Positions 25,124-39,366 of a stretch of 64,000 nucleotides of DNA are shown here, piece after piece (positions within the stretch are counted from its first letter, which is position 1; each line of letters opens with the position of its first letter). The notes beneath the pieces are model-generated. The model saw nothing but the letters and a program-made list of their open reading frames with translations, did no database searches and was not told the DNA's origin. The position numbers and the translations under genes were made by a program. The stretch covers positions 10,190 to 74,189 of the IMG/VR virus record IMGVR_UViG_3300005805_000002, one strand, 5' to 3'. Origin of the DNA: a virus. Taxonomy: Duplodnaviria; Caudoviricetes.

Positions 25124-25143
25124 CTAACCGGAATCTTGGTTAA
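25124..25143. repeat. 20-bp palindrome copy ctaaccggaatcttggttaa
   Basis: Embedded in a longer GC hairpin (gccccgc...gcggggc) after the VWA gene; may also act as a terminator. Confidence 0.75.
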
Positions 25144-25164
25144 GCGGGGCAAGGCGGGTTTGGT

Positions 25165-26811
25165 TCAGTTATGCACGGCTTCCATCTGAACGGCGTGGAA
25201 GTTAACGAACTTGCCGAAGGGCATACGGTAGTTGTCCCCTCCGTACAGATACCTTTGACAAGTATTGATCCAGAGCGTGGGGATACCGGGATCCGGCGTA
25301 CGCCACCAGCTCCACTGCATGTCGGAGACAACGACGATCCAGTCGTACTCGGACCTGCGGTTCTTGGCCCAGTTGAAGGCGGGCATGAGGTCGGTCGCAC
25401 CGCGTCCGGCCCAGCCTTGGAACTCGGTGATCGGGAAGTCACAGGACCTGTAGTCGCGTGACGCCCGAACGGAGGTGTCGCAATGCAGCAACGTGACGGT
25501 CGACTGCGGGAACAGCGACAGCACTTTGCCGAGATGCGTCAGGGCTTGGTTGCAGTCCGCGTCGCTCATCGAGCCGGACGTATCTACAATGAAGAGACCA
25601 CGGGTCTTGCTACGGGCGCGGCGAGCCGGAAGCAGCAGGTCCTTACGATGGCTGTGCCTGCGGGACGGCCTGTCGTATTTCCAGCCTGCGGCGTGTTGGG
25701 TCCGGAGAAACTTCTCCAGTTCCTTGCGCCAGTTGATCGACGCGGCCAACTCGGGGTCTCCCTCGATGCGCTCCTTGTACTGGGAGATGATATCACCCAG
25801 ACCAGTCGGGCTGTAGGTCGAGCTACCGAGCAGCGCTTCGAGGATGAGCTTGGCCTCGTCTTCGCGAAGCGTGACTTCTTCGGGCGCGTCTTCAATGCCG
25901 CCGCCGAAGGTCTCGGTCGGATCGGGCATGTTGGCGAAGGGGTCGTGCTCGGCGTTGGAGTCGGAGCCCGCCTTGGCGGGGTCGCCGCTCTCGGAGTCGG
26001 AGTCGGAGTCGTCAGCGTCCTCGAAGTCCGACCCGTCGAAGGGTTGGCTGTCGTTGCCTGAGCCAGAGGAATCCTCGTCGTCACCGTCCTCGTCCTTGTC
26101 GGATTCGCCGGAGCCAGAGGAGTCATCGTCTGAGTCATCGGAGTCGGAGTCGCCGACCTCGTTCTCGTCCCAGTCGTGGACGCCATCGTCATCCTCATCA
26201 TCGGAGGAGCCGGGCTTATCCTTGTTGGATCGAGTCTTGGTCACTTGGGTGCCTTCCTGACCTTCCTCGCCTTCCTCGCAGGGCTCGCCGTCGACAGGTA
26301 CCTCGTTGGTAGGAGGCTGAGGCGGCGGAGGCGGGTTGAGCTGCTTGAGCAGGTCGTAGTACTCCTCGGCGCTCTTGTTGTACGGGAGACCCTCGAAGGA
26401 TTTGAAGCCGACGAAGCAGCCGCCCGAGACTTTCGAGTCGATCAGCTCGGCTTGCAGTTTGACGGTGTCGCCTTGGAACGCCTCACGGTAGCCCTTGTAG
26501 AGCATACAGTTGAGCGCGAGATCGGCGGCGATGTTGTAACCCTTGGGGTTTCGTTTGCCACGGCGGTGCTGGTGATTGGACAGCACGTGACCGACCTCGT
26601 GCAGCACGATGGCCTTGGCGGCGGACAAGGACAGCTTGTCGACGAACGAGGGATTGTACGTGAGAGTCCGGCCGTTGGTCGCCATCGTGGACAAGGAGCC
26701 GGACGGCTTGACCGACCAGCGTGACAGCACGACTGGTATGGCTATGGGTTCGAGCCGAGCGACCCAGTCGAGTGCGACTTTGATCTTTTCAGCAGAGGTA
26801 AGTTGAGTCAT
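25165..26811 (-). CDS. DUF2201-like metallopeptidase-VWA protein with long acidic linker
   Basis: LHEVGHV (HExxH); IVDTSGSMS (MIDAS DxSxS); central D/S/E-rich tract. Confidence 0.85.
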   Translation of the reverse strand: MTQLTSAEKIKVALDWVARLEPIAIPVVLSRWSVKPSGSLSTMATNGRTLTYNPSFVDKLSLSAAKAIVLHEVGHVLSNHQHRRGKRNPKGYNIAADLALNCMLYKGYREAFQGDTVKLQAELIDSKVSGGCFVGFKSFEGLPYNKSAEEYYDLLKQLNPPPPPQPPTNEVPVDGEPCEEGEEGQEGTQVTKTRSNKDKPGSSDDEDDDGVHDWDENEVGDSDSDDSDDDSSGSGESDKDEDGDDEDSSGSGNDSQPFDGSDFEDADDSDSDSESGDPAKAGSDSNAEHDPFANMPDPTETFGGGIEDAPEEVTLREDEAKLILEALLGSSTYSPTGLGDIISQYKERIEGDPELAASINWRKELEKFLRTQHAAGWKYDRPSRRHSHRKDLLLPARRARSKTRGLFIVDTSGSMSDADCNQALTHLGKVLSLFPQSTVTLLHCDTSVRASRDYRSCDFPITEFQGWAGRGATDLMPAFNWAKNRRSEYDWIVVVSDMQWSWWRTPDPGIPTLWINTCQRYLYGGDNYRMPFGKFVNFHAVQMEAVHN

Positions 26812-26885
26812 GGTTGGATTGTTCTAACGTGGTAGTTGGGACGATGTGTCAGGGGGCCCCCGCAAGGAGGCCCCCTGATCTTTGG

Positions 26886-28013
26886 TTAGCCGACGATGGC
26901 CTTGTAGGCATCGAGGCCTGCGAGGCTGGGCAGCTTGGCCCCGGCCACGCGGAACCACCAAGCCACAGCCTCACGGCAGGCGGGGTTCTCGGTAGCGCAG
27001 CGGGCGAAGTAGTCAGCCACAGCCTTGGTGTGCGCCGGATTGACCTCGGGCGAGAGGTTGCGCTTGGCCTGCTCGGGGTCGAGCAAGCGGACAGCGAACG
27101 ACTCACCGAGTGCGTACAGGACGCCGATCTGGTCGGCCGGAGGAGTCGGCGCGGAGGCCGGATCCTTGACGACTTTCTCGAAGGTCGGGCACTGCGAGAG
27201 GACCTCGCGGTACGCGATGTATTCGCGGCCAGCGGTCTGACCGACCAAGCCGAAGACGATGGCGTCTCCGACCTCCGGTGTGAGCGGGGTCTGGGCCAGC
27301 ACGTCGAGAGCCGCCGCAGCCCACGTGAAGGTACGAGGGTTAGGACGTTGCTGCTCGATGTACTCGTGTTTGCCGCCGCCGAAGATGTTCGGGCGGAAGC
27401 GGGCATAGCCAACCAGAGCGGCATCAATGCCGTTGCCGTTAGCCCAGTCGATCCAGTGGTCCAAGGCGCGGGGGCCGTGGGTGTCCACGTAGAAGTGGGC
27501 CAGACGGGTAGCCGCCGCAGTGGTCAGCTCGGTCGTGCCCGTGTCGGTCGTGCCGTTGCCAGCGCAAACAATGTGCGTCAGCTTGGACAGCTTGCGGCCG
27601 TTGACGCCACGGTCGAGCAGGATCTGCAAGGCCACGTTGAGGACGTCGATGGACGTGCGGTCGACCTCGTCGAAGAACAGGATGCACTCATAGTCGTCTC
27701 CGTAGAGATCGGCCCACGGGAGCAACGAGTTGGCGAGGTAGGACAGGACCTTGCGGACCTCGCCATCGATCTCCTGATCCACGGGGTACGGGATGCCGCC
27801 GAGATCGGTGGGCTCCTTGTCCGACAGGCGGACGTCATGGAGCGGCAGGCCGAGATCGGCGGTGAGCGACTTGATCGTAGCGGACTTGGTCCAGCCGACC
27901 GGACCCCAGATTACGGGGACCAGATCGAGTGTGGGGACCCAGCACACGGCGATGCACTGCTTGATGGTGGACAGCGGAAAAGCCGCTGCGGGGACAGGTT
28001 TATGATTTTGCAT
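26886..28013 (-). CDS. MoxR-like AAA+ ATPase
   Basis: WGPVGWTKS (variant Walker A), LFFDEVDR (Walker B), CAGN sensor; adjacent to the VWA gene; start MQNHKP. Confidence 0.85.
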   Translation of the reverse strand: MQNHKPVPAAAFPLSTIKQCIAVCWVPTLDLVPVIWGPVGWTKSATIKSLTADLGLPLHDVRLSDKEPTDLGGIPYPVDQEIDGEVRKVLSYLANSLLPWADLYGDDYECILFFDEVDRTSIDVLNVALQILLDRGVNGRKLSKLTHIVCAGNGTTDTGTTELTTAAATRLAHFYVDTHGPRALDHWIDWANGNGIDAALVGYARFRPNIFGGGKHEYIEQQRPNPRTFTWAAAALDVLAQTPLTPEVGDAIVFGLVGQTAGREYIAYREVLSQCPTFEKVVKDPASAPTPPADQIGVLYALGESFAVRLLDPEQAKRNLSPEVNPAHTKAVADYFARCATENPACREAVAWWFRVAGAKLPSLAGLDAYKAIVG

Positions 28014-28059
28014 GGTGGTAGTTGTGTGGTTGTGGTGGTTGGGAAAAGGGGCCCTCCGG

Positions 28060-28079
28060 CTAACCGGAGATCGGGTTAA
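28060..28079. repeat. 20-bp palindrome copy ctaaccggagatcgggttaa
   Basis: Flanked by the extra stem gccctccgg/ccggagggc; followed on the minus strand by the A/C leader of the AAA gene. Confidence 0.8.
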
Positions 28080-28096
28080 CCGGAGGGCGGATCGGG

Positions 28097-28315
28097 CTAG
28101 AGCGTCGAGCCCTTGCTCGGGAAGCCGTTGACGTGATTGATGATCCACTGGCGGACCATCCCGTTGAGTTTGTCGAGCGTTTGGCGGGACACCCGAGTGA
28201 ACTTGTGGTGACGCGTCTTCTTGGCGTGGTCCAGCATGAAGGTGCGGACCTTGCTTTCGACGATGAGAGACGCGCTGATGCGCGCTACGACTTGATCGAG
28301 TTCGGATTCAGACAT
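28097..28315 (-). CDS. Hypothetical protein (72 aa)
   Basis: Preceded by the conserved leader. Confidence 0.65.
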   Translation of the reverse strand: MSESELDQVVARISASLIVESKVRTFMLDHAKKTRHHKFTRVSRQTLDKLNGMVRQWIINHVNGFPSKGSTL

Positions 28316-28344
28316 GGTGGTAGTTGTGTGGTTGTGGTTGTGGT

Positions 28345-29277
28345 TTAGGAGACCTGAGCTTTGACGGCTCCGGCCTTGAGCTTGGACAGGATGTCGCCAG
28401 CCTGCTTGGCAATCTCCGACCGGACCTCGGTGCCCTTGTCGGTCTTCTTGTCGCGGAGGACATTGGACTGAGCGGCTTTGACGAGTCCGGCGACGAGGTC
28501 GCGGGCACGGGTCACGGCAGCGGTGATGGTGCGGTCGTTGTTGACGTTGAGCGCAGGCAGGGCCTCGACCAGTTCTTCGAGGTTGGTGACCATCGTGTCC
28601 TCGAAGCGGGCGATCTTACCGGAGTTGAACTCGGTAAGACTGCTGACGACACGGGACAGCGCGGCCTCCAGCCTCTCGACGACAGTCTTGTGCAGGTCCT
28701 TGACCTTGTCCGCGTATTCCTTGCGGGTGCTGTCCTCGATGGCAGCGCGGGCCTTGGCCGACACGTGGTTGAGGCGGATGTCGTCGGGGTGCGTGATGGC
28801 GCTCTGCTTGATCTCGAACTTGTAGCGTTCACGCACCTCGTCCTCGGTCGGGAAACCGAGTCGGTCGAAGGCTCCGTTGAGATCGACCCGGGCTTGGTCG
28901 CGGAGTTTAGGGAGGCTCTTGCAGAGCTTGTCGACGGAGTCGTAGAACTCGGCGCGGAAGGCTTCGAGTTTCTGGACAACCGAGTCGAGCTTGGTGTTAA
29001 CGACTGCGAACGAACCCTTGCCGTCCCAGCGGAAGCCCGTGGGGAAGTCAAGGTAGCGGCGAGCCTCGGAGAGCTTCTGCTGCGGAGGCAGGCGGTCCTC
29101 CTTGGTCAGTCGCTGCACGTAGGCAGTGAAACGGTCGGAGGCAGCGTGATCGGCGCTGGCCGCGTTGGCGGCAGCTTGGTCGTCGCGTTTGCTCCACGGG
29201 AACAGCGAGCCCTCGATGCTGACGAGGGTGCAGTCACGGGCGATGTCGAATGCGTTGGTAGTTTTGTATTCAGTCAT
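28345..29277 (-). CDS. DUF3150-like protein
   Basis: Pattern LNGAFDRLGFPTEDEVRERYKF and position upstream of an AAA+/VWA pair match recalled DUF3150-type genes. Confidence 0.6.
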   Translation of the reverse strand: MTEYKTTNAFDIARDCTLVSIEGSLFPWSKRDDQAAANAASADHAASDRFTAYVQRLTKEDRLPPQQKLSEARRYLDFPTGFRWDGKGSFAVVNTKLDSVVQKLEAFRAEFYDSVDKLCKSLPKLRDQARVDLNGAFDRLGFPTEDEVRERYKFEIKQSAITHPDDIRLNHVSAKARAAIEDSTRKEYADKVKDLHKTVVERLEAALSRVVSSLTEFNSGKIARFEDTMVTNLEELVEALPALNVNNDRTITAAVTRARDLVAGLVKAAQSNVLRDKKTDKGTEVRSEIAKQAGDILSKLKAGAVKAQVS

Positions 29278-29327
29278 GGTGGTAGTTGGTTGTGTGGTTG
29301 ATGGCGAACGCCGACGTCGTCTTAAAC

Positions 29328-29414
29328 CTACCGATCAAAATATGAGCGGGAGATGAACAAGGCGACGAGCAGCGAGGCCAGAAGGTAGAGAACGAAGTGG
29401 GCTTCGGGAATCAT
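29328..29414 (-). CDS. 28-aa single-TM micropeptide
   Basis: MIPEAHFVLYLLASLLVALFISRSYFDR. Confidence 0.45.
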   Translation of the reverse strand: MIPEAHFVLYLLASLLVALFISRSYFDR

Positions 29415-29467
29415 GGCGGCAATATAGTTAGACAACTCTCGGAGCAATTCGTTCAAATTATTTTTCG

Positions 29468-29842
29468 TCAGTGTTTCCAAAGGGGCGGTTTGACGCGCAG
29501 CTTCACGGGGTAGCGGTGCTCTCCGGCACGCTCGGCGGGTCGGATGAAACAGAAGTCATACTTCTTTCCATTGTAGACATAGTTGAAGCCGCCGTGCTCG
29601 TCGTGTTCTACATTGACGCTGCCGTGGTTGTCGTGCTCGTTCGAGTAGAACTCCAAGACCGAGTACGGTCGCTGAGTCTTCTCATCCTTGTATCCGAGCG
29701 GTTCGACGTAGCCTGCGAAGAAGTAGACGCAGTCTTTGGTCGTGAGTTTGCTGGCGTTGCTCGCAGTCGGATCCACGTCGCAGTTGCGAAGGAAGACCAT
29801 GAGCTTGTCGTCGGGATGGGGTATGTTGGTTTTGTATTTCAT
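29468..29842 (-). CDS. Hypothetical protein
   Basis: MKYKTNIPHP...; packed in the operon. Confidence 0.6.
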   Translation of the reverse strand: MKYKTNIPHPDDKLMVFLRNCDVDPTASNASKLTTKDCVYFFAGYVEPLGYKDEKTQRPYSVLEFYSNEHDNHGSVNVEHDEHGGFNYVYNGKKYDFCFIRPAERAGEHRYPVKLRVKPPLWKH

Positions 29843-29844
29843 GG

Positions 29845-30135
29845 TTATTTCTCGGGCCAAGCCGAGTAGATGGGTTTCAATCCTTTGTCATCGAAGAAGC
29901 TGACTACGCGGCCTCGGTGAGTGAGGCGACTGGCGTGGGCTCCGACTGAACGGGGTCGCACTTCACAGGTAGGGTAGCCCCTATAAAATCCCGTGAACTT
30001 GCTTTCCAATAACACCTCGATGTTGTGCTCTTTGGCGCTACCGCAGCGGGACTTTATGTATCCCGTGCCGCTATGCTTTCCTTTCGGGTCGTCGAAGTAG
30101 ACGCGTTGCAGGACGAATGTGTCTGAGAATTTCAT
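29845..30135 (-). CDS. Hypothetical protein (96 aa)
   Basis: Packed ORF. Confidence 0.6.
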   Translation of the reverse strand: MKFSDTFVLQRVYFDDPKGKHSGTGYIKSRCGSAKEHNIEVLLESKFTGFYRGYPTCEVRPRSVGAHASRLTHRGRVVSFFDDKGLKPIYSAWPEK

Positions 30136-30473
30136 TAGTGTTTGATCAGATCGTGGAGCGCGTCATCGGCGCTAATGAGAGGGACATTTTCGAGTACGTA
30201 GGTGTCGTTGACTCTTATGCCCACGAGTAAGCCGTGGGAGCCGTCGAGACACTGGGCTACTGCTCGCATTCCGCAGAGCGTGTCCTCAGCGCCCGAAAGG
30301 CCCAGACCGGAACCGGAGTTGTAAACGGCGTTGGCTTTGGCGGCGTCTTCATAAGACGCGTAAACGTGCGGGTTCCATACCCAGAAGTTGACGTCTTCGA
30401 TCTCGATAGCTCGGTCGAAAGGCTTCTGGTCAGGTGGAACCGGATAGGGAATGTGAATGTGTTGTGAGTTCAT
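30135..30473 (-). CDS. Hypothetical protein (112 aa)
   Basis: Preceded by palindrome plus leader. Confidence 0.65.
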   Translation of the reverse strand: MNSQHIHIPYPVPPDQKPFDRAIEIEDVNFWVWNPHVYASYEDAAKANAVYNSGSGLGLSGAEDTLCGMRAVAQCLDGSHGLLVGIRVNDTYVLENVPLISADDALHDLIKH

Positions 30474-30506
30474 AATGGTAGTTGGTTGTGGTAGTTAACT
30501 TATGGG

Positions 30507-30526
30507 TTAACCGGATATCCGGTTAA
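30507..30526. repeat. Perfect 20-bp palindrome ttaaccggatatccggttaa
   Basis: Contains the TAA stop of the 196-aa ORF (30523-25). Confidence 0.9.
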
Positions 30527-31113
30527 GCAGAGGGGACTTCGCAATACTTCAACAAGAAGGGGAAAAACCATTCCTCGGCTACCCTTTCAAGTTCTCGAAA
30601 GGCTTGAAGAGTCTGGTCCTGCTCAAGCGGTTCTTCATTGTGAAACGTGACGTCAATCCCGTGTATCGGGCGCTCAAGCCACGTGCCCTCGTAGCGGTCA
30701 ACCATATTGGAACGAAGGTAAACGGTGCTCGCGTAGTCGCCCTTGGCATGTTCGGTGTAAATGACCAGTGTCTGCGAGGTGCTGAGGAGGAAATCGAACG
30801 AGTGGTCTTTTCGCCACTCGTTACTGACGCTCAGATGCTTTCTGCTCTCGGTAAGCCACGTCTCCAGAGTCATCCACGCGGGGCGTCGGAAGTGCGGGTC
30901 TTTTATGTGCAGAGCGTGGTAAACCTTTTCAGCTACATCAGGTTTTAAGCGGAGATGTCGAGTATCGAGGTAGAGCTTATACACCGGACCGAATGCGACT
31001 CGAACGCGGTAATCGCGAGCGCGTTGCATTTTGTCCTTCTGTCGCTGCTCTTCATCTTGTTGCTGTTTCGCGGAGACGAGGCGAGCAAGAGTGGGGTTAG
31101 TGGATTCTTTCAT
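30523..31113 (-). CDS. Hypothetical protein (196 aa)
   Basis: Bounded by leader upstream and palindrome at the stop. Confidence 0.7.
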   Translation of the reverse strand: MKESTNPTLARLVSAKQQQDEEQRQKDKMQRARDYRVRVAFGPVYKLYLDTRHLRLKPDVAEKVYHALHIKDPHFRRPAWMTLETWLTESRKHLSVSNEWRKDHSFDFLLSTSQTLVIYTEHAKGDYASTVYLRSNMVDRYEGTWLERPIHGIDVTFHNEEPLEQDQTLQAFRELERVAEEWFFPFLLKYCEVPSA

Positions 31114-31132
31114 AGTGGTAGTTGTGTGGTTG

Positions 31133-31152
31133 TTAACCGGATATCCGGTTAA
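31133..31152. repeat. Perfect 20-bp palindrome ttaaccggatatccggttaa
   Basis: Contains the TAA stop of the 71-aa ORF (31149-51). Confidence 0.9.
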
Positions 31153-31364
31153 AGTTCGTAGGAAGCGTCGAGGTTATCGACAAACTCCCGCATGGATGAG
31201 GTGAGATCTGCTTCGGAGATGGCAACGTGCATGGCACGTATACCTTCGCCGTCCGGTGTCTTGTATAAACAGACGACTCGGAAGTTGGTGAGCTGTAGAC
31301 CAAGGGCCAGCATTCTCATGCCGACCCAGTCACAGATGGCGGTGTAAGTGCGTTCGAGGATCAT
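31149..31364 (-). CDS. Hypothetical protein (71 aa)
   Basis: ATGA overlap with the upstream gene; stop inside the palindrome. Confidence 0.6.
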   Translation of the reverse strand: MILERTYTAICDWVGMRMLALGLQLTNFRVVCLYKTPDGEGIRAMHVAISEADLTSSMREFVDNLDASYEL

Positions 31365-31519
31365 TCTTCGTTTTCGGCGGGGTAGACGACGAGCTTGGCC
31401 TGATTGCCTTCGCCTATGGCGAAATCCAGTCCATACTCATACCAGTTGTAGTCTTGCACGATGATCTCCGACTCGGGGTCGTGCTTCTGTAAGTGATCGA
31501 TGAGTTCTTTAACTTTCAT
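31361..31519 (-). CDS. Small phage protein (52 aa)
   Basis: MKVKELIDHLQKHDPESEIIVQ, a common small-phage-protein start; below the ORF-track length cutoff. Confidence 0.6.
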   Translation of the reverse strand: MKVKELIDHLQKHDPESEIIVQDYNWYEYGLDFAIGEGNQAKLVVYPAENEE

Positions 31520-31521
31520 GG

Positions 31522-31767
31522 TCAGTTGATGGTTGCGTGGAAGTAGACGCCGCGTTCATCGTTCCGGTCTTGGAGTTGAATGCTCCGAGCTTTGCCGGAG
31601 ATGACGCAGCGGGGTTGCGACTTTCGGTCGCGGGTTGCGGTTGGGACGTTGCAGGACAGACTCTCGACAAAGAGGCAGGCCCCCTTGTAGTGAATCGACA
31701 GCACGTTGCGGCCCCACTTTTGTGATAGAGGCTTGTTGTAGTGGTAGAAGAATGTGAATGGTTTCAT
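31522..31767 (-). CDS. Hypothetical protein (81 aa)
   Basis: MKPFTFFYHYNKP...; packed ORF. Confidence 0.6.
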   Translation of the reverse strand: MKPFTFFYHYNKPLSQKWGRNVLSIHYKGACLFVESLSCNVPTATRDRKSQPRCVISGKARSIQLQDRNDERGVYFHATIN

Positions 31768-32102
31768 TGGTCTTCGAGTTTGGAATTGATGAGGGCGCGA
31801 ACGTCCGGTTCGATCTTGGCGAAAGCCAATCGCAGGCTTTTGGGCACTTGATCGGGTGCTGGTCCGTCGTCGAAGGTGTCAATGCGGTTGCGGGAATACC
31901 GGATGCATCCTTCCTCGAAGGGACCAACGAACGGTGAGCGGCGGGCATCTTCGCGATAAACGCGGAGCAAATACTCCTCGTCGGTCGGCATGACCGCGTA
32001 TATGTCGCAGTCAATGTAACCGTCGCAGTTGATGATGGCCCAGTCGAAGCGGATGCCAGTGCCCGGATCGGTGAATGTTGTTCTGTTTTTCATTGCGGTC
32101 AT
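31764..32102 (-). CDS. Hypothetical protein (112 aa)
   Basis: ATGA overlaps at both ends. Confidence 0.6.
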   Translation of the reverse strand: MTAMKNRTTFTDPGTGIRFDWAIINCDGYIDCDIYAVMPTDEEYLLRVYREDARRSPFVGPFEEGCIRYSRNRIDTFDDGPAPDQVPKSLRLAFAKIEPDVRALINSKLEDQ

Positions 32103-32335
32103 AGGGCTCCTCTTTCTCCTCCGGTCGGCGGGTTGATGAGTCCGGCTTCGATCATGCGGACAGCCGTGCGTCCGTAGAATCCCTGCAACGTCCATGCCAT
32201 TCCCGTATCTACGAGGTATTGGAATAGGCGGAGGGTCCCTTCGGTGCTGAGGCTGCCTTGCTCGAAGTCGATGAGTTCGGTGGTGAGATCGAATGATTCG
32301 GTGGTGTTCACGGGTGGTAAGGAATCGATGTGCAT
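32099..32335 (-). CDS. Conserved small phage protein (FQYLVDTGMAWTLQGFYGRTA)
   Basis: Motif recalled from many phages (DUF7417-like). Confidence 0.7.
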   Translation of the reverse strand: MHIDSLPPVNTTESFDLTTELIDFEQGSLSTEGTLRLFQYLVDTGMAWTLQGFYGRTAVRMIEAGLINPPTGGERGAL

Positions 32336-32341
32336 GGTGTG

Positions 32342-32818
32342 TTAAGCGAGTGCGCGTTGCAGGCCAGCGTGCAGGACGCCGCCATACCACGCGGGGTTCT
32401 TTTCTTTGAGGATGGTGAGGGGAGCTTTACCCGCGTCTAACTCGGCGAAGTATTGCTCCGGTGTGTGACTGGCGATCAGCTCTTTGCGGAACTTCGCCAG
32501 CGTGAAAGGTCCCCCGTGTTTGAAACGGGCGACGAACTTGCGGTCGGGTCCGAAGAGCAGGTATTGCCCCTCTCGGAACAGTTGATCTTTGGTGAACTTG
32601 GTCATGGTAGTTGGTGGTTTGGTGACGTAGAGAAGCGGGGGATACTCGTTCCGCTTCTCCAACTTGGTGGTCAGATGAGTGCCCCTGCAATGGGGGCAGG
32701 AGTAGACTCCGTATTGCTTGTTGCGCTTCCGGCGGAAGCGTTCCGCGTGTTCTTCGTAATCGGACCAGCCAAGATTGATTTTGCCTCGGCATCCTCGTTC
32801 CAAGCTGGGTGGTTTCAT
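32342..32818 (-). CDS. Two-part ORF: YxCPxCxGxHLT domain fused in frame to a second ORF starting at 32605
   Basis: Internal leader ccaccaactaccATG at 32605 (translated KPPTTM). Confidence 0.6.
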   Translation of the reverse strand: MKPPSLERGCRGKINLGWSDYEEHAERFRRKRNKQYGVYSCPHCRGTHLTTKLEKRNEYPPLLYVTKPPTTMTKFTKDQLFREGQYLLFGPDRKFVARFKHGGPFTLAKFRKELIASHTPEQYFAELDAGKAPLTILKEKNPAWYGGVLHAGLQRALA

Positions 32819-32825
32819 GGATGCC

Positions 32826-32845
32826 TTAACCGAGATTCGGGTTAG
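32826..32845. repeat. 20-bp palindrome variant ttaaccgagattcgggttag
   Basis: Contains the stop of the 60-aa ORF at the distal TAA. Confidence 0.7.
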
Positions 32846-33008
32846 GCTCGGCGAGCTTGATGGCCGCGCGGAGTTCCTTGATGGTAATCCACGCGGGGTG
32901 TTCGCGGTCTCCGCTCGGCTCGAACTCGGGCATGATACCTTCGAGATCGGCGAGCGCGCATTTGGCAGCGTCGAGCAGCATTTTGAATGATCGAGTGTGT
33001 TTTTTCAT
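32826..33008 (-). CDS. Hypothetical protein (60 aa)
   Basis: MKKHTRSFKMLLDAAKCAL... Confidence 0.55.
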   Translation of the reverse strand: MKKHTRSFKMLLDAAKCALADLEGIMPEFEPSGDREHPAWITIKELRAAIKLAEPNPNLG

Positions 33009-33355
33009 TGGGTGATGGTTGAGGTTTCGTAAGGGACGCAGTCGTTATCCAAGCCGAACTTGGACAGCATCTCGTCCGAGCAGTATCCGTTGTCATTGGG
33101 CGCGCAGTTGGGATGCCCGTAAATGCAGGAGCAGGGATGCTCGGCGACCATTTGCAGGTAACGCTTTGCGTATGCCTGTCGCTTGCGGTCGCAGATCTCG
33201 ACGAGATCCTTCTGGGTAATACGGGTCCCGCATACTGCGGTGTAATCGATGAGCTGGTCGGGGAAGACCGGACTCGTGACACGCTTGCCGTCGAAGAGGA
33301 CTTCAAACTCCTCTCCGGCGATGTTGAGGATGATGGGTATGGGATCGATGGTCAT
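33005..33355 (-). CDS. Hypothetical protein with Cys/His cluster
   Basis: HPCSCIYGHPNC...YC; start MTIDPIP. Confidence 0.55.
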   Translation of the reverse strand: MTIDPIPIILNIAGEEFEVLFDGKRVTSPVFPDQLIDYTAVCGTRITQKDLVEICDRKRQAYAKRYLQMVAEHPCSCIYGHPNCAPNDNGYCSDEMLSKFGLDNDCVPYETSTITQ

Positions 33356-33357
33356 GG

Positions 33358-33927
33358 TTAATTCCTTCCGGACATTTGCTTCCACACACCGAGATCGAAC
33401 TCGGCGAACGTGAGATGGGGGAACTTGGTCCGCACCATGCGCTTCGCCTTCTCCTCGATCTTGAGGTAGGTCGGCGACAGCTTATTCGGCGTGGTCGCAG
33501 GGATGCCCCTCATGCGGCACTCCTCGCGGAGATAGCGCAGCATATGGACGTCGAGGACCACGAGTTCCTCGTCCGGTCGGCTATGCAGCAGGAACATCCG
33601 CGCGGTCTTGTGCCCAATCCCGTGGATGGACAGCAGGTCGTGCAAGGTGCAAGTGCGGAGGTTCAAGTTAAGAACCCCGGCCACAGCGGGAGCGTTCTTG
33701 TTGTAAGGTGCGAGATGCCACTCTTCGAGAATCTCGGCAATGCTCATGCCGTGATACGGAGAGCGGAACGCATCGAACAGCGATCCGTTGGTGCGGGCGA
33801 TGAGTCGATTGACCAGTCGCGCAGTGGAGTCGGAGTTGTGTCCGGCCACGGCGATGCAGAAGAGCATGAACTCTTCCAGTTCCTCGTCGCTGCGGTGGTA
33901 GTTGGTGACTTGTGTGGGTTCGATCAT
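33358..33927 (-). CDS. HhH-GPD superfamily DNA glycosylase/lyase (OGG2/EndoIII-like)
   Basis: LLSIHGIGHKTARMFL helix-hairpin-helix with Lys; VVLDVHM with the Asp. Confidence 0.75.
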   Translation of the reverse strand: MIEPTQVTNYHRSDEELEEFMLFCIAVAGHNSDSTARLVNRLIARTNGSLFDAFRSPYHGMSIAEILEEWHLAPYNKNAPAVAGVLNLNLRTCTLHDLLSIHGIGHKTARMFLLHSRPDEELVVLDVHMLRYLREECRMRGIPATTPNKLSPTYLKIEEKAKRMVRTKFPHLTFAEFDLGVWKQMSGRN

Positions 33928-33945
33928 GGGTGGTGTGGTAGTTGG

Positions 33946-33965
33946 TTAACCGGAATTCCGGTTAA
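33946..33965. repeat. Perfect 20-bp palindrome ttaaccggaattccggttaa
   Basis: Contains the stop (33962-64) of the upstream ORF. Confidence 0.9.
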
Positions 33966-34471
33966 GCAGCCTCCCGCCAGTCGTGGGGTCGGCTGTAGAA
34001 TCCGAACGAGGGATCGTCCTCGCTCGGGGTGAAGGTGGCGGTGAAGGTGACACGCTTGCCGTCCTCGGTGGCCGCGCGGGAGGGTTTGGATCCCCAGACC
34101 TTGGCCCCGTCCGGCAATTGGATGAGGCACTTGATCGAGTCGCCGAACTTGGTCGCAACGAGCTTCTGCTTGAGGATCACGCCCGTGACCTCGGTCCGGC
34201 CGAGCGGGGCGCGGATGCCAGCGGCAACCCGTTTGGCCCGTTCCTCGGCGCGCTCGTCGGCCCACTTCATTTTCTGAAGCGACTCCTTGTGGAGTTTGAT
34301 AGCGAAGGCTGCCTGTTTTGGAGTCAACGACTTATACCGGACGAGCTTGACGGCCATGTCCTGTAGGATGTTGACGCCCCATGAGATGCGGTCCCACGCG
34401 GGGTGCGACTGCAATGACGAGTCCGCGCCAAAGTGGAGCGCGGCATTCAACTCGGAGTTATTGGTATCCAT
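33962..34471 (-). CDS. Conserved phage protein with OB-fold-like C-terminus
   Basis: GRTEVTGVILKQK...KVWGS...VTFTATF...DDPSFGFYSRP. Confidence 0.6.
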   Translation of the reverse strand: MDTNNSELNAALHFGADSSLQSHPAWDRISWGVNILQDMAVKLVRYKSLTPKQAAFAIKLHKESLQKMKWADERAEERAKRVAAGIRAPLGRTEVTGVILKQKLVATKFGDSIKCLIQLPDGAKVWGSKPSRAATEDGKRVTFTATFTPSEDDPSFGFYSRPHDWREAA

Positions 34472-34518
34472 AGTGGTAGTTGGTGGTGGTGGTGAAAAAG
34501 CCTCTATCACGTTTCCGG

Positions 34519-34608
34519 TCAGTCGGTTACGAGGCAGATGGCGATCCCGAGCAGGGTGAGTCCGCAGAAGATTTCCAGTGCGGTCTGGAGAATGTCGTAG
34601 GGTATCAT
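34519..34608 (-). CDS. 29-aa single-TM micropeptide
   Basis: MIPYDILQTALEIFCGLTLLGIAICLVTD; GGTTTAAGA motif about 25 nt upstream. Confidence 0.45.
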   Translation of the reverse strand: MIPYDILQTALEIFCGLTLLGIAICLVTD

Positions 34609-34718
34609 ACTGATGCGAGTATATGTAGACGTCTTAAACCTTGGGTTGTTCAATCTTGGGTGCTTGGAATCCTCGGCCCCCGAACGGATGGGACGTAGCG
34701 GGAACGAGGTGATGGGAC

Positions 34719-34907
34719 CTAACGGATGGACTGCGGGTCGTCGGTCTTGCGGATCTCGACTTTCGTCGTGGGATCCCAGTTCGCCTTGACGCGAAGCCAA
34801 AGCTCCGCCTCGGACGAGGCCGACTCATGCGTCCGGTGGTTCGTTGAGGAGACGCGGCGTTTGTCGCGCGTCACCACGTAGACGAACTCCTTTTCGTAGT
34901 TGGGCAT
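34719..34907 (-). CDS. Hypothetical protein (62 aa)
   Basis: Preceded by palindrome plus leader. Confidence 0.65.
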   Translation of the reverse strand: MPNYEKEFVYVVTRDKRRVSSTNHRTHESASSEAELWLRVKANWDPTTKVEIRKTDDPQSIR

Positions 34908-34939
34908 GGTGGTAGTTGGTCGGGTTGTTGCGGTGGTGG

Positions 34940-34959
34940 TTAACCGGAAATCGGGTTAG
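34940..34959. repeat. 20-bp palindrome variant ttaaccggaaatcgggttag
   Basis: Contains the stop of the 56-aa ORF 34940-35110. Confidence 0.85.
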
Positions 34960-35110
34960 CGGAGAGCTTCACGTTGTGAAACTCCTCGAACAGGCGTTGA
35001 TACTCCTTGGCCTTCTCGTCGGTATTGATCGGGCCGAGAGCGATGATTGCGTTCAAGTATTGCCGGAAGCTCGGGTCGTCGTAGCTGGGTGGTGCAGGAT
35101 TGTAAGGCAT
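34940..35110 (-). CDS. Hypothetical protein (56 aa)
   Basis: MPYNPAPPSYDDPSFRQYLNAIIALG...; judged more plausible than the track's 34956-35144 frame. Confidence 0.55.
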   Translation of the reverse strand: MPYNPAPPSYDDPSFRQYLNAIIALGPINTDEKAKEYQRLFEEFHNVKLSANPISG

Positions 35111-35160
35111 AAGAAAGGGGCGGGGCTTTTTCGGCTAACCCCAAGCCGCGTTGCGGTTGG

Positions 35161-35361
35161 TTAGATGAAGTCGTCGTGCGAGACTTCAGCGGAGGGACGC
35201 CATTCGTTGAAACGATTGCGGTAGGCGTTGAACGCGTCGAAGCACTGGTCGAGGGCCTTGGGATCGTAGGCCGTGAGAAACTTGCGTATCTCCGGCGACA
35301 GGACGATGACCGAGACGGCCTTGTTCAGTTGTTCGAGCAGCAGTTGTGTTGCGTTTTCCAT
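35161..35361 (-). CDS. Hypothetical protein (66 aa)
   Basis: Preceded by palindrome plus leader. Confidence 0.65.
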   Translation of the reverse strand: MENATQLLLEQLNKAVSVIVLSPEIRKFLTAYDPKALDQCFDAFNAYRNRFNEWRPSAEVSHDDFI

Positions 35362-35386
35362 GCGGTAGTTGGTGTTGTTGTGTTGG

Positions 35387-35406
35387 TTAACCGGAGATCC
35401 GGTTAG
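35387..35406. repeat. 20-bp palindrome ttaaccggagatccggttag
   Basis: Lies just downstream of the tRNA-like RNA. Confidence 0.9.
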
Positions 35407-35458
35407 GAAAGGGGCATCCCTTGTAGGCGTGTAATGACGCCTCGTTAGTTGTCAGAGC

Positions 35459-35616
35459 AGACGGCGAGGGGAATCGAACCCCCATCTCCCATAACTCCAT
35501 CTCGCGGTGATCAGCCGAGAGTCATCGTCTGTCTGCGACCGAGATCACGCGTAATCCAGTGCAGGTCGGCGATGAATTCATGGAGGGGCGTGTTACCAGT
35601 TGAACACTACGCCGCC
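35459..35616 (-). ncRNA. tRNA-like RNA with a ~80-nt structured insert replacing the anticodon loop
   Basis: Acceptor GGCGGCG/CGCCGTC, T8A9, D-arm GTGT-TCAACTGGTA-ACAC, T-arm GGGGG-TTCGATT-CCCCT, discriminator T, no encoded CCA. Confidence 0.75.
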
Positions 35617-35769
35617 ATCGTTGATCGATTTCCCTCTGACCTCTGGGATGAGTGGGGCTTTGTTGCCTGACCCCAAGGCAGGGACCGCTAACGCGTGATC
35701 CCTATTACGGACAATCTGGTGACCCCGATTGACAGGGGGCCATTCGGAATTCGCGAATGGCGAAAGTGG

Positions 35770-36195
35770 TTAGCCCCAGCAGAGCCCGCCGAAGTCGTCG
35801 GGCGAGAATCCGGCGGGGAGTTCGACTCCCTGCAACAAGAGGATGTTCCGGCAGAAGTCAATATCGTCGCAGGACGCGCAGTAGATGTCGTCCCCATCGA
35901 CCATGTCGGGGTGCTTCTTGAGCAAATCCCAGACAGGTCCGCGCAGCTTGCCCCAGCCGAAGGTGAGGAACGAGTCGAGGGAAGCGAGAGCCTCGACGCG
36001 GTGGACCTCCTTGTAGAGCCGATACGAGAGCCGCTCGCAGCGGAGGAAGGCGGACTCGTCGGTCGGAAGTTGACTGGCGAGGTTGGAGTAACGGCCTTGA
36101 AGTGCCGTCAGCCGGGCGTAAGTGCCGGGATGGACTTGAGCCAGACGCTCAAGGATTTCGGGGTTGGTGGTTTTCGGATACAGGCGTGTTCCCAT
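35770..36195 (-). CDS. Conserved phage hypothetical protein (141 aa)
   Basis: MGTRLYPKT...FLTFGWGKL; preceded by palindrome plus leader. Confidence 0.7.
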   Translation of the reverse strand: MGTRLYPKTTNPEILERLAQVHPGTYARLTALQGRYSNLASQLPTDESAFLRCERLSYRLYKEVHRVEALASLDSFLTFGWGKLRGPVWDLLKKHPDMVDGDDIYCASCDDIDFCRNILLLQGVELPAGFSPDDFGGLCWG

Positions 36196-36220
36196 AGGTG
36201 TTGGTGTGGTTGTGGTTAGA

Positions 36221-36240
36221 TTAACCGGAGATCCGGTTAA
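36221..36240. repeat. 20-bp palindrome ttaaccggagatccggttaa
   Basis: Contains the stop (36237-39) of a 33-aa peptide. Confidence 0.9.
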
Positions 36241-36338
36241 CGGAGAGCGAGGAGAAGGCAGGGAGCGACTCCGACAATTGCGGCCAAGATATACAGGGCC
36301 AAAAGCCAGAGGGGCTCGCGTTGGTTTTGATTTTTCAT
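36237..36338 (-). CDS. 33-aa single-TM micropeptide
   Basis: MKNQNQREPLWLLALYILAAIVGVAPCLLLALR; stop inside the palindrome. Confidence 0.5.
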   Translation of the reverse strand: MKNQNQREPLWLLALYILAAIVGVAPCLLLALR

Positions 36339-36407
36339 GGAGTTGGGGGAGGTGTAAGCCTCGCTTCTACTCCCCGTCACGGGCACGGGGAGCAGGTGCG
36401 ATTCCAA

Positions 36408-36494
36408 TCACCAGTCGAGCAGGCTACGAATGAATCCGTAGATCAGCAGGAATGATCCGATCAGAGTCATGGAGACCAAGATGTCTGGACTCAT
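36408..36494 (-). CDS. 28-aa single-TM micropeptide
   Basis: MSPDILVSMTLIGSFLLIYGFIRSLLDW. Confidence 0.45.
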   Translation of the reverse strand: MSPDILVSMTLIGSFLLIYGFIRSLLDW

Positions 36495-36501
36495 GGCTGC
36501 C

Positions 36502-36642
36502 TTACTCGTTGAAGTCGTCGGCCGAGATCGGGGCCTCGACCCAGACCCAGTGCAGCGGGCTATGGTCGTCCTCGGTGAAGGACGGGGCCACGTTGACACG
36601 GGCGGGGACTTGATCGACGGGTTGGTTGTAGTTGTCTTCCAT
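36502..36642 (-). CDS. 46-aa acidic peptide
   Basis: MEDNYNQPVDQVP...; preceded by palindrome plus full leader. Confidence 0.55.
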   Translation of the reverse strand: MEDNYNQPVDQVPARVNVAPSFTEDDHSPLHWVWVEAPISADDFNE

Positions 36643-36678
36643 AGTGGTAGTTGGATGGTTGTTATGGTTGTGGTTGTG

Positions 36679-36698
36679 TTAACCGGAGATCCGGTTAA
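36679..36698. repeat. 20-bp palindrome ttaaccggagatccggttaa
   Basis: Followed on the minus strand by the leader. Confidence 0.9.
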
Positions 36699-36763
36699 CG
36701 AGAGCGGAGTCACTCCAACACCTGCACCAGTGGTTGGCAGTCCCACTGGTGAGGTGCTGACGC

Positions 36764-36780
36764 GAACCCGTTCCGGTTAG
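36764..36780. repeat. Palindrome half-site gaacccgttccggttag
   Basis: Holds the stop (36777-79) of the 155-aa ORF. Confidence 0.5.
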
Positions 36781-37244
36781 GACTGGGCCTTGGCCTGCTT
36801 GGTCAGCCAAGCGCGGCGGAGAGCAGAGACCGCGTCCTCGCCAGCCTCGGCCTCGGCGAGAGCGATGAGCTTCTCGATGACGGGGGCGAGCTTTGCGTCC
36901 TTCTCTTTCTTGCTCTTGCTCTCGGACTTCTGGGCACGTTCGCGGAGGCCCAGAGCAACGAACGCATCGGAGGCACGGCGTTCGGACTCGGCCTTGGCCT
37001 GCTTCTCGGTCTTGCCGTCAGCGAGGTAGGCCTCGACCAGCGCGGCTTTGACTTGCGCCTTGAGGTCCTTGATTGCGGCTTTGCGGTCCGCGCCAGAGGC
37101 GGCGATCTCGCTGGAGATGCGCGCCTTGATTGCGTCTTTCAACGCGGCGAGGTTGGAGTTCGCCACGGCGAACGTGACGATGTCGGTGATGACGTCCTCG
37201 GTGAAGGAGAGGACGCTGCGGAGGTTGGCAATGATGTTGCTCAT
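36777..37244 (-). CDS. Ala/Lys-rich helical protein (155 aa), first gene of the early run
   Basis: MSNIIANLRS...; strongly G/C-ending codons. Confidence 0.7.
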   Translation of the reverse strand: MSNIIANLRSVLSFTEDVITDIVTFAVANSNLAALKDAIKARISSEIAASGADRKAAIKDLKAQVKAALVEAYLADGKTEKQAKAESERRASDAFVALGLRERAQKSESKSKKEKDAKLAPVIEKLIALAEAEAGEDAVSALRRAWLTKQAKAQS

Positions 37245-37279
37245 AGTGGTAGTTGTGGTTAGTCGCTGGATCACGATGC

Positions 37280-37299
37280 TTAACCGGAAACTCGGTTAG
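37280..37299. repeat. 20-bp palindrome variant ttaaccggaaactcggttag
   Basis: Lies between the candidate ncRNA and the first early gene. Confidence 0.85.
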
Positions 37300-38190
37300 C
37301 CACGGGTCGGTCGTCGTCAGCACTCGGAGACCAATCCGAATGGACAGGGGAGATGAATCCGCAATGGGTAGTTCACGATCCCCTGTTTCGACCTTTATTC
37401 AGCAGTCAGCGCACGTTCAGCAGAGGAAGCGATTGGCGAGTGGGATGCGGACAAGTGGAGCCGCAAAGTTATAAGTGCCGTTCGTATCTGCTCGTCCCGA
37501 TTCGGTGTTCTACCGACATACCTCGAAAGGCATGACCGCAAACCAATGCGGTGGCAGGCTTGACTACCTGCTGCTCCGTTACCGGACCGAGCGCACGCCC
37601 CGTTTGAGGCGTTGCTGGTCTATGGTCGGAGAGGACTGCAACTGACTTCAGTCTTGCGCCCGTTTGTAATCACGGGCATCCGTTCGCGCTACGTTTCCTC
37701 ACGCTACAAGGCAATCCACAAGGGGACGAACCCCTTGGCCGGAACTGGTCTGCACCAGTGTCGCGTCCGGTCTGCCAACCCCGCCCTTACGCACCTCTAC
37801 TCGGGGACTCCAAAGCCTAACTCCCATCCCGCTGGAGACGATCCAGCGCGGCGAGAGGTCAGCAAACCCCTTTCGGGCCTCGATCAGTGTTGGCCTGATT
37901 TCGCGTCTGCTCGCGCACCTTGAGGGGTCTCGTCTCCCGTCCACGATCCTCGCCGCGCGGCCCTTCATCAGTAGCCCCTATGCGGTTCAACGGATCATCC
38001 AACTGGTGGACTTCGTTTCGATACCTCCCCTCGCCTTGCGGTCGAGTCTGAATGTCAAAGAACTGAAGGCTGCCTCGATCCCTTCTGCTGTCGGTCGGGA
38101 GTCGATCCCGTCTCGCGCTTCTGGTCTCTCGGTCTGCTACCTATTGGGGACCTCGGAGGAATTAGGTTGCCAACAGAGTAAGAAAGGGTA
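37300..38190 (-). ncRNA. Candidate large structured ncRNA (~890 nt)
   Basis: No convincing ORF; more than ten hairpins plus long-range helices; GNRA/UUCG tetraloops when read on the minus strand. Strand is tentative. Confidence 0.55.
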
Positions 38191-38196
38191 TGTTGG

Positions 38197-38216
38197 CTAA
38201 CCGGAACACTGGTTTA
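38197..38216. repeat. 20-bp palindrome variant ctaaccggaacactggttta
   Basis: Ends 4 nt before the ATG of the HTH gene. Confidence 0.7.
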
Positions 38217-38220
38217 CTGG

Positions 38221-38745
38221 ATGCCTGCCTCGCACGATCCCAAGCTGAAAGAAGAAGCTCGCCGCCTCATGGAGGAGGAAGGCTTTACTCTGACCGAGAC
38301 CGCTCGGCGGGTAGGAGTGTCGAAGGCAGTGATCAGTGACTGGGCGACAGCAGGTGAATGGAGGAGGACAGAAGTCGTTCGACAGGTTAGGATACAGGAA
38401 CAGAAACTGGTAACTGATCCGGTGTTAGATGCTGCGATCAAGCGACTTACGACAATGCCGAGAGGTCAACGGGAAGCGGAGTATGATGAGGCAATGCACC
38501 TTTGGGCTACCTCGATCCCGATTCTGTTGAAGCAAATCCCTCACAATGAATTAGTTACAAAGGCCGACAAGGTTGCAAAGCTCATCGAGGTATCGAGGAA
38601 AGTGCTTGGAAAAGAGGAAGGCAAATCGAAACCTGCCATGCTATCTGTCGGAATCCTGTCGTCGTCTCCCATCCCCAGCAGGATTCCCCAGCCGCTGGAA
38701 ATCCTTGATGCACAGGTGGATACGCTAACCGAAGATGCGGTTTAG
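38221..38745 (+). CDS. N-terminal HTH DNA-binding protein (small terminase-like or regulator)
   Basis: ARRLMEEEGFTLTETARRVGVSKAVISDWATAGEW; isolated plus-strand gene. Confidence 0.65.
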   Translation: MPASHDPKLKEEARRLMEEEGFTLTETARRVGVSKAVISDWATAGEWRRTEVVRQVRIQEQKLVTDPVLDAAIKRLTTMPRGQREAEYDEAMHLWATSIPILLKQIPHNELVTKADKVAKLIEVSRKVLGKEEGKSKPAMLSVGILSSSPIPSRIPQPLEILDAQVDTLTEDAV

Positions 38746-38889: not shown

Positions 38890-39335
38890 GCCCTCTCTGT
38901 AGCCTCTCTGTAGCCGGGTTCATCGACACGTCGCGAGAACATGTCGACGTTCGACCACTTTATCGACATGTCGCCGAACGACCACACCCGCCGGAGGGCT
39001 TCGCCACGAACGGGTGGCCGTTAGGGGGAAACTCAGGGGGAAAGGGGGAAACTGTTTTTGGTAGTTTCCCCCCATCCAAAACCGCTCCGTTTACTCTGTT
39101 ATTTTAGGGGGTAGGGGGGAAAGGGGGGAAACTATTTCTCTATTTCTACGGGAAGATGAAAATAAATAGATACGATGTAAAAAAAACCCGTATTATGTAT
39201 TTTAGGTAGACTTTTCAAAACATCTCCCCCTTTCCCCCCTTTCCCCCCAGTTGGACGCCAAGCCGTTCGTAAGCAGGTGCTTACGCCGAAAAATTTCGGA
39301 AAAATCCTTCCCCCCGCCGAAAAGTTTCCCCCGGT
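38890..39335. repeat. AT-rich region with direct repeats and opposed G5-6/C5-6 tracts (candidate origin or packaging region)
   Basis: ctctctgtagc x2; tcgaca/gtcg repeats; (ggggg aaa)n at 39024-48 and 39107-28 versus (ccccc ttt)n at 39225-48; palindrome gtaagcaggtgcttac. Confidence 0.55.
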
Positions 39336-39366
39336 TAGTGGTAACCAAGTACTAAGGAACCCCTAA

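Follow-up and report, generated by a model that had tools for sequence, protein, structure and literature searches.

The stretch of DNA analysed here, called the window below, comprises 64,000 nucleotides (positions 10,190 to 74,189) of the IMG/VR virus record IMGVR_UViG_3300005805_000002, and our subject is a 20-base palindrome that recurs at the gene junctions of its early region. The genome of this uncultured, temperate phage is a single contig of 74,189 bp with 55% GC, and a 99-bp overlap between its ends indicates that it is complete and circular. A search of genome contigs for prophage relatives that would assign a host found none, and the only host-related name obtained was that of a “Proteobacteria bacterium” contig from a metagenome-assembled genome. 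The structural genes lie on the plus strand, and a long minus-strand block runs from the integrase gene (52622–53836) down to 21.4 kb, encoding after the integrase a ribbon-helix-helix protein, an SNF2/DUF2800 helicase-nuclease, a DNA polymerase A and a primase. The sole break in this block is a plus-strand gene for a helix-turn-helix (HTH) protein (38221–38745). The minus-strand stretch directly downstream of it, the early operon, contains about 28 mostly small genes as well as the trio DUF3150, MoxR-like AAA ATPase and DUF2201/VWA, and its sense strand is G-poor.

A palindrome family confined to one operon

The palindrome TTAACCGG-N4-CCGGTTAA has 12 matches with at most three mismatches (Table 1), as compared to a mean of 0.21 and a maximum of two in shuffled sequences. 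The copies are confined to 25.1–38.2 kb, that is, to one 13-kb operon of the 74-kb genome, and a scan of all 74,189 bp adds none at this threshold. Allowing a fourth mismatch yields two extra matches (11117 and 38725), which is the number predicted by chance; the second of these (38725–38744) falls in the last codons of the HTH gene and is doubtful as a true copy, being coding sequence at a chance-level count. Shuffles and whole-genome scan together rule out a chance occurrence and a genome-wide motif. An earlier note, made by eye from the letters of this DNA, had listed the same 12 copies, including three perfect palindromes, and had seen none beyond 25–38.3 kb. All 12 were recovered exactly where it had placed them, the three are indeed perfect 20-mers, and the scan bears out the confinement. 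The half-site that it had noticed near 36764 is TAACCGGA at 36772–36779 on the minus strand, part of a truncated remnant.

Every copy lies at a gene boundary, at a distance of 7–46 nt from the downstream start codon. Both 8-nt arms are perfect in half of the copies (six of 12, three of these being the perfect 20-mers). Conservation resides in the arms, the four bases at the centre differing between copies (AT[AC]T, AATT, ATTT, GATT or GTGT). The outer pyrimidine varies alike on both arms, with C1 in four copies and G20 in three, and half of these changes would break an RNA pair.

Table 1. Positions of the palindromes and associated features in the window, and the palindrome families of three relatives
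Feature	Position	Strand	Remarks
Palindrome, 3 mismatches	25124–25143		After DUF2201/VWA gene; tip of 7-bp GC extension gccccgc/gcggggc; -33.4 kcal/mol, z -5.9
Palindrome, 2 mismatches	28060–28079		Before AAA ATPase gene; stem extended 8–9 bp, ccctccgg/ccggaggg; -31 kcal/mol
Palindrome, perfect	30507–30526		Contains TAA stop of gene 30523–31113
Palindrome, perfect	31133–31152		Contains stop of gene 31149–31364; leader CAACCACACAACTACCACTATG next
Palindrome, 3 mismatches	32826–32845		Gene 32826–33008 runs through and ends at last TAA; next ATG 7 nt downstream
Palindrome, perfect	33946–33965		Contains stop of gene 33962–34471
Palindrome, 2 mismatches	34940–34959		Gene 34940–35110 runs through; RNA folding no better than shuffles
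Palindrome, 1 mismatch	35387–35406		After ORF-free stretch with tRNA-like element
Palindrome, perfect arms	36221–36240		Contains stop of gene 36237–36407
Palindrome, perfect arms	36679–36698		Followed by 36-nt G-free leader and ATG of gene 36502–36642
Remnant CTAACCGGAACGGGTT	36764–36780	-	Arms AACC/GGTT, spacer 4 nt too short; contains stop of gene 36777–37244
Palindrome, 2 mismatches	37280–37299		Between hammerhead ribozyme candidate and leader of first early gene
Palindrome, 3 mismatches, most degenerate	38197–38216		Divergent control region, 4 nt upstream of HTH start codon
Plain GC hairpin without palindrome core	26845–26885	-	After ATPase gene; relatives have palindrome-tipped hairpin there
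Leader example CAACCACACAACTACCACC	28014–28035	-	G-free, Shine-Dalgarno-less, before ATG
Type II hammerhead ribozyme candidate (RF02276)	37302–37393	-	Ends 2 nt before palindrome (37299)
ORF-free stretch	37394–38196	-	From control region to hammerhead; sense strand G-rich, unlike rest of operon
Box CCTAATTCC-N12-CCAATAGG	38135–38170	-	Shared with both relatives downstream of HTH genes
174-aa HTH protein, candidate binder	38221–38745	+	N-terminal three-helix HTH, helical C-terminal part
Palindrome family of G002 (contig L073)	24.5–33.3 kb of 33-kb contig (all copies)		TTATCCGG-AATT-CCGGATAA, 11 copies; ATPase 80% identical
Palindrome family of G001 (contigs L009/L011/L012)			CTTGTCCG-AATY-CGGACAAG, 4 copies; ATPase 66% identical
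Palindrome family of G003 (contig L076)	Within 4.5 kb upstream of ATPase gene		TTATACTT-NN-AAGTATAA, 10 copies, 0–23 nt before start codons; ATPase 33% identical
ORF, open reading frame.

In the open-reading-frame (ORF)-free stretch next to the copy at 35387, the minus strand of 35459–35616 contains a tRNA-like element. Acceptor stem, D arm and T arm (GGGGGTTCGATTCCCCC) are all present, and about 100 nt are inserted where the anticodon would be expected; ARAGORN made no call for the element and Rfam gave no match.

Relatives were found by protein searches with the ATPase, and three contig sets (G002, G001 and G003) were compared. Each has a palindrome family of its own, located in the same operon as here. 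The 8-4-8 geometry is common to this phage, G002 and G001, and the copies of each genome (12, 11 and 4, respectively) share that genome's own version, the versions differing by one or two positions that are symmetric on both arms. As far as the compared sequences go, the architecture of the palindrome is conserved and its sequence is lineage-specific. At the orthologous junction after the DUF2201 gene, for example, the flank AAACCC(G/A)C is kept and the palindrome core is different. The exact palindrome, alone or together with the leader described below, was not found in multiple copies in any other IMG/VR or JGI metagenome contig, which rejects a shared mobile element. All of its matches in these collections are single and mostly lie in unrelated DNA of 40% GC, and INPHARED phages gave no match. 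Further ATPase homologues, up to 86% identical, are encoded on contigs of 45–75 kb.

Stop codons, leaders and gene turnover

The earlier note had assigned seven minus-strand gene stops to the element or its remnant, and scoring of gene ends by a simple codon-usage measure trained on the phage's long genes upheld all of them. Five use the TAA at positions 2–4 of palindrome or remnant, and two small genes (32826–33008 and 34940–35110) read through the palindrome and end at its last TAA. In G002, the stops of the upstream genes precede the palindrome, and its 5' arm is stop-free. A function in supplying stop codons is therefore rejected, the stops here being an accident of TTAACC, and a stop-containing element turns out to be peculiar to the sequence of this phage and not a property of the system.

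A G-free leader of the AACTACC type, ending in AACTACCAC(C/T)ATG, follows eight of the 12 copies. Five genes that lack a palindrome have the same leader in front of them (26837, 28325, 29287, 32612 and 34481), which brings the genes with an AACTACC leader to about 13, all on the minus strand from 26.8 to 37.3 kb. Leader and palindrome are therefore separate modules: the leader does stand behind most copies, as had been noted, but the two do not form a fixed unit. Genes elsewhere in the genome lack the leader, and two of them (52281 and 52629) have AAGGAGG. Like the palindromes, the leaders are phage-specific (CAACTACCACYATG here, CCAACCATAGAAAAACCAATACAATG three times in G002 and AACCAAACCAAACC..ATG in G001), and they recur as exact 18–25-mers within each genome.

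Palindrome and leader together may, in one alternative reading, serve as portable punctuation, offering short repeats for the gain, loss and swapping of accessory genes in the manner of promoter-early stem-loop (PeSL) cassettes. Gene content is compatible with this proposal, as the three close phages (ATPase identities of 66–80%) have in common no more than DUF3150, the ATPase, DUF2201, the HTH gene and the first early gene and differ in all other small early genes. The slot between DUF3150 and ATPase holds a 72-aa gene followed by a palindrome here, a palindrome followed by an unrelated 125-aa gene in G002, and neither in G001. The basic 72-aa gene (28097–28315, minus strand), which is among the few small genes that this phage and G001 have in common, lies downstream of DUF2201 in G001 and has thus been relocated, and one G002 site (L073 4020) has a G001-type arm and is a possible hybrid. 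However, the distance of the available relatives prevented any breakpoint from being mapped to a palindrome. No genome mixes palindrome types, contrary to what the import of foreign cassettes would produce, and no paralogous duplications of gene-plus-palindrome units were found. Palindromes also flank conserved core genes without any insertion, as after the ATPase gene of G002, and the 4-bp spacer is too short for the core site of a tyrosine recombinase, the only recombinase being a generic tyrosine integrase encoded 14 kb away. We therefore consider portable punctuation unlikely, recombination at the repeats being plausible as a by-product. The position of the elements at gene boundaries of a hypervariable early region is well supported and gene turnover there is extensive, but the cassette shuffling proposed from it could not be shown to take place at the palindromes.

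RNA folding and ribozyme candidates at the first junction

In a second alternative, which seems possible although we would not expect it to hold, the palindromes act mainly as RNA, forming intercistronic stem-loops in a G-poor and otherwise unstructured early transcript. Such stem-loops might have a role in stabilising or delimiting processed mRNAs or in attenuating transcription, or they might be the target of a phage RNA-binding or RNA-cutting factor, and the unstructured CA-rich leader behind each would allow initiation without a Shine-Dalgarno sequence. The G-poor sense strand agrees with this proposal, and so do the folding energies, which amount to -10 to -15 kcal/mol for perfect copies and to -24 to -33 kcal/mol for extended ones, with z-scores down to -7. 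The extensions arise from complementary flanks that are not conserved and add four to nine pairs in seven copies (two of 12 here and five of 11 in G002), whereas only 0.4% of random positions have at least four flank pairs; extended copies flank conserved core genes. Junctions without a palindrome often hold an unrelated GC hairpin instead (after the ATPase gene here and before it in G002), and even the HTH gene on the opposite strand begins right after a copy.

Several properties of the copies do not fit a role as RNA. Variants of the inner stem are uncompensated, and most extended copies are mismatched there. The copies at 34940, 37280 and 38197 keep TAACC...GGTTA yet fold no better than shuffles, which also holds for most of the AT-rich 8-2-8 palindromes of G003. 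The loop is the least conserved part, unlike in most RNA–protein sites, and the copy at 38197 sits in a divergent control region. Moreover, a generic hairpin role leaves a uniform, lineage-specific sequence restricted to one operon unexplained. Intrinsic terminators were considered and rejected, since none of the 12 terminator-like calls coincides with a palindrome and the stems are followed by CA-rich leaders, no copy having a T tract behind it. The earlier note had argued against RNA folding from one nearly invariant arm and a second arm drifting without compensatory changes. The left arm, TAACCGG on the plus strand, is indeed intact in 11 of the 12 copies, but the imbalance of variant arms (six versus one) is not significant, the closest relative, G002, has two versus three, and the flanks do covary. 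The readings of the palindrome as a DNA site and as RNA are not mutually exclusive.

RNA-level roles are also indicated at the junction before the first early gene, where a hammerhead ribozyme candidate here and a twister candidate in G002 each abut the palindrome. The hammerhead candidate matches the full-length model and has all core nucleotides (CUGACGA, GAAA and the GUC cleavage triplet). A 28-nt insert in stem III keeps its score, 30.7 bits, under the gathering score of 37, and its expectation value (E) ranges from 1e-4 to 1e-2 depending on the number of bases searched. The type-P1 twister candidate of G002 (L073 5495–5565, plus strand; 51.8 bits, E 7.7e-9, gathering score 67.2) likewise covers the full model with an intact core; it starts 4 nt after the palindrome at 5471–5490, and downstream of it come a leader and, at 5589, the true start codon (ATG) of the orthologous gene. 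Unconstrained minimum-energy folds recover both ribozyme architectures, including the three-way junction of the hammerhead. Beyond the hammerhead, no other Rfam family was found between 21 and 41 kb.

Upstream of the ribozyme junction, 550–900 nt free of ORFs separate the HTH gene from the first early gene in each of the three close phages (L073 4607–5465 and L011 6100–6620 in the relatives). No coding ORF was found within 37300–38200 of the window, where all ORFs score 0 or below by codon usage, and no sequence homology was found among the three ORF-free stretches. Each ribozyme candidate thus closes an ORF-free RNA, with the palindrome as its neighbour and the leader of the first early gene downstream, and points to the early transcript being cut or processed at this place. 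Bacterial and phage-associated hammerhead and twister ribozymes are known to share gene contexts near phage genes, which has not been explained (PMC6765202, PMC4604425). As in those cases, two unrelated classes occur in the same genetic context here; the difference is that, in two related phages, one class stands in for the other at a single orthologous junction. This place may therefore offer a concrete setting for why both classes share neighbourhoods, a question listed as open (PMC6765202).

A stricter form of the RNA proposal, which we regard as quite improbable, combines hairpins and ribozymes: the palindromes would be RNA hairpins read by a phage-encoded, sequence-specific RNA-binding or RNA-cutting factor, which together with the ribozyme at the first junction would dice the transcript. 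If this were true, the G-poor polycistronic transcript would be converted into single Shine-Dalgarno-less messages, hairpin and reader would co-evolve, and the ribozyme would serve the first junction, where no phage protein exists yet.

The adjacent HTH protein and comparison with known systems

The reading that we prefer, while holding it tentatively, is that the 20-bp palindromes are multi-copy operators or roadblocks for the adjacent 174-aa HTH regulator. What favours it in the sequence is that the palindromes are uniform within a genome, specific to a lineage, variable in the centre, restricted to one operon and placed at the HTH gene. The palindromes occur only in the operon beside this gene, the replication and structural operons being devoid of copies, and conserved arms around a varying central 4 bp fit a dimer that contacts two half-sites. 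An orthologue of the HTH gene heads the palindrome array in this phage, G002 and G001. Among 20 homologues, the start of the recognition helix (residues 33–40) is the most variable structured segment, with a mean entropy of 1.55 as compared to 0.68–0.88 in the conserved blocks, and the three phages with their three palindromes have three recognition helices (SKAVISD here, AKEVIHG in G002 and NADTVRR in G001).

The control region agrees with this arrangement. As had been noted, the last copy ends 4 nt before the HTH start codon, and the distance in G002 is 9 nt (L073 4587); another G002 copy lies 44 nt after the HTH stop. In G001, the HTH gene itself contains a perfect 15-bp palindrome (TTGTCCG-C-CGGACAA, L011 5524–5538) encoding LSGGQ, which corresponds to the two half-sites of that phage with a 1-nt spacer and has a chance probability of about 1e-3. 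In both phages a -10-like hexamer is found just upstream of the HTH-adjacent palindrome on the HTH strand. Here, a sigma-70-like TTGCCA-16-TATGTT (plus strand) ends 3 nt before the palindrome at 38197, which would place the transcription start of the HTH gene within the palindrome; as the promoter scan was at chance level in total, this site counts as evidence of position only. The box shared with both relatives downstream of the HTH genes (Table 1) is a candidate early promoter.

Two further observations concern this region and its neighbourhood. A CTAATTC..CAATAG box, related to the G001 motif GTTTCCAATAGGNTGTGA, is found downstream of the HTH gene both here (38166–38138) and in G002. On the other side, the ORF-free stretch 38990–39350 is dense in GGGGG(G)AAAGGGGG(G)AAACT words, both direct and inverted, and is a candidate replication origin or protein-binding array.

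Mechanistically, a two-fold symmetric phage-encoded regulator, most likely the 174-aa HTH protein, would dock on the palindromes, its binding and the resulting repression being what we infer from the arrangement. The copy at 38197, just downstream of the likely HTH promoter, would provide autoregulation. The 11 copies inside the leftward early operon would be extra operators or roadblocks that silence or time the operon, for example in a lysogen, by an action modelled on the conserved inverted repeats (CIRs) of phage phiC31 and the stoperators of Cluster A mycobacteriophages. Copies at the tips of intercistronic RNA hairpins would in addition give the transcript a stem-loop.

A number of points weigh against regulation by the HTH protein. 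No copy overlaps the candidate early promoter, and the one at 38197 lies about 75 nt upstream of it, which gives no clear sign of a classical operator repressing the early operon. G001 has no clear copy beside the HTH start, and in G003 palindromes are present but no HTH homologue could be detected in the 74%-complete record. The HTH–palindrome pairs number three, too few to prove co-variation. The leaders are repeated and phage-specific without a trans-acting factor, and uniformity within a genome is therefore possible by duplication or recombination alone. The covarying flank extensions and the adjacent self-cleaving ribozymes point to RNA-level roles. Finally, the AlphaFold2 model of the HTH protein is poor (predicted local distance difference test 64, predicted template modelling score 0.28), although its best structural matches, all weak, speak for the preferred reading, being double-stranded-DNA regulators of the generic HTH type.

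The palindromes might also be phage-specific promoters or parts of promoters, factor-dependent or N4-like hairpin promoters, giving one transcript per unit. They do lie 7–46 nt upstream of start codons and are lineage-specific like the promoters of the T7 group. Moreover, G001 has an oriented motif, GTTTCCAATAGGNTGTGA, at three positions (62087 (L011 6087), L012 1458 and L012 3222), each with a small covarying hairpin and then a CA leader behind it, and two of these positions, including that of the expected early promoter, hold palindromes in the other phages. Nevertheless, no sense-strand sigma-70-like promoter coincides with any copy, the ATG is as near as 7 nt, two copies lie within coding sequence, and palindromy is unexpected for a promoter. 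A virion RNA polymerase with hairpin promoters is rejected, as searches of the 4,081-aa virion protein and beyond gave neither a polymerase domain nor a DxDGD motif. Overall, we rate a promoter function as very improbable. The 4,081-aa protein belongs to the structural module (6834–19079, plus strand) and matches only DUF7178 and two PHROGs of unknown function.

Protein recognition of DNA, preferred over RNA folding already in the earlier note, hence remains the best reading and is stoperator-like, with the HTH protein as the candidate binder. Junction palindromes as such are already known from phiC31 and from Cluster A and Cluster O mycobacteriophages. The c repressor of phiC31 reportedly binds the CIRs and regulates its own synthesis. 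In our re-analysis of the phiC31 genome (AJ006589), 15 copies of CCTACTCACGTGAGTAGG were found at gene junctions right after stop codons, several of them in longer GC stems. The likeness to the present phage lies in a single palindrome of about 16–20 bp with many near-identical copies at gene junctions, some of which are embedded in longer stems (the copies at 25124 and 28060 being extended by seven and nine pairs here). In contrast, the CIRs are spread over the whole genome (1.2–41 kb) and not over one 13-kb operon, several extended CIRs carry T runs where none does here, and the phiC31 repressor is a large protein unrelated to the putative HTH binder.

Cluster O mycobacteriophages have more than 30 copies of a 17-bp dyad repeat, TGTTCGG-N3-CCGAACA, whose function and binder are unknown (PMC4351075). 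These repeats resemble ours in having invariant arms, a variable centre and positions mostly between genes or at gene starts. They are, however, genome-wide and identical in all five phages of the cluster, whereas here each relative has its own sequence and a candidate regulator is encoded next to the array. In T4-type phages, a PeSL cassette consists of a strong sigma-70-like promoter together with a terminator, and the cassettes recombine and form mini-circles (PMC2839356). They share with the present array the repeated stem-loop punctuation among small non-essential genes of a hyperplastic early region. Here, the stem-loop is present but no copy has a T tract or is terminator-like, and no sense-strand sigma-70-like promoter site was found at any copy in a scan that was at chance level in total. 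The parallel to integron attC sites drawn in the earlier note fails on length, structure and recombinase, as 20 bp with a 4-bp centre stand against imperfect sites of 57–141 bp with R''/L''-L'/R' boxes and extrahelical bases, together with IntI, attI and Pc.

The stoperators of Cluster A phages (L5 gp71 type) are many short repressor sites in intergenic gaps or over start and stop codons, with one site at the early promoter region, and a block of elongation has been proposed for them; they are 13–14 bp long, asymmetric, oriented with transcription, bound by a monomer and distributed genome-wide (PMC9283540, PMC6550527). The site described here resembles them in having many copies at gene boundaries, one of these in the control region, and differs in being a 20-bp palindrome, not an oriented asymmetric one, and in its restriction to 25.1–38.2 kb. 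The stoperator consensus differs among related phages along with the repressor (PMC9283540, PMC6550527). With three related phages, three palindromes and three small adjacent HTH proteins that differ in their recognition helices, the present family may serve as a small model of how the specificity of a regulator and that of a dozen sites shift in concert.

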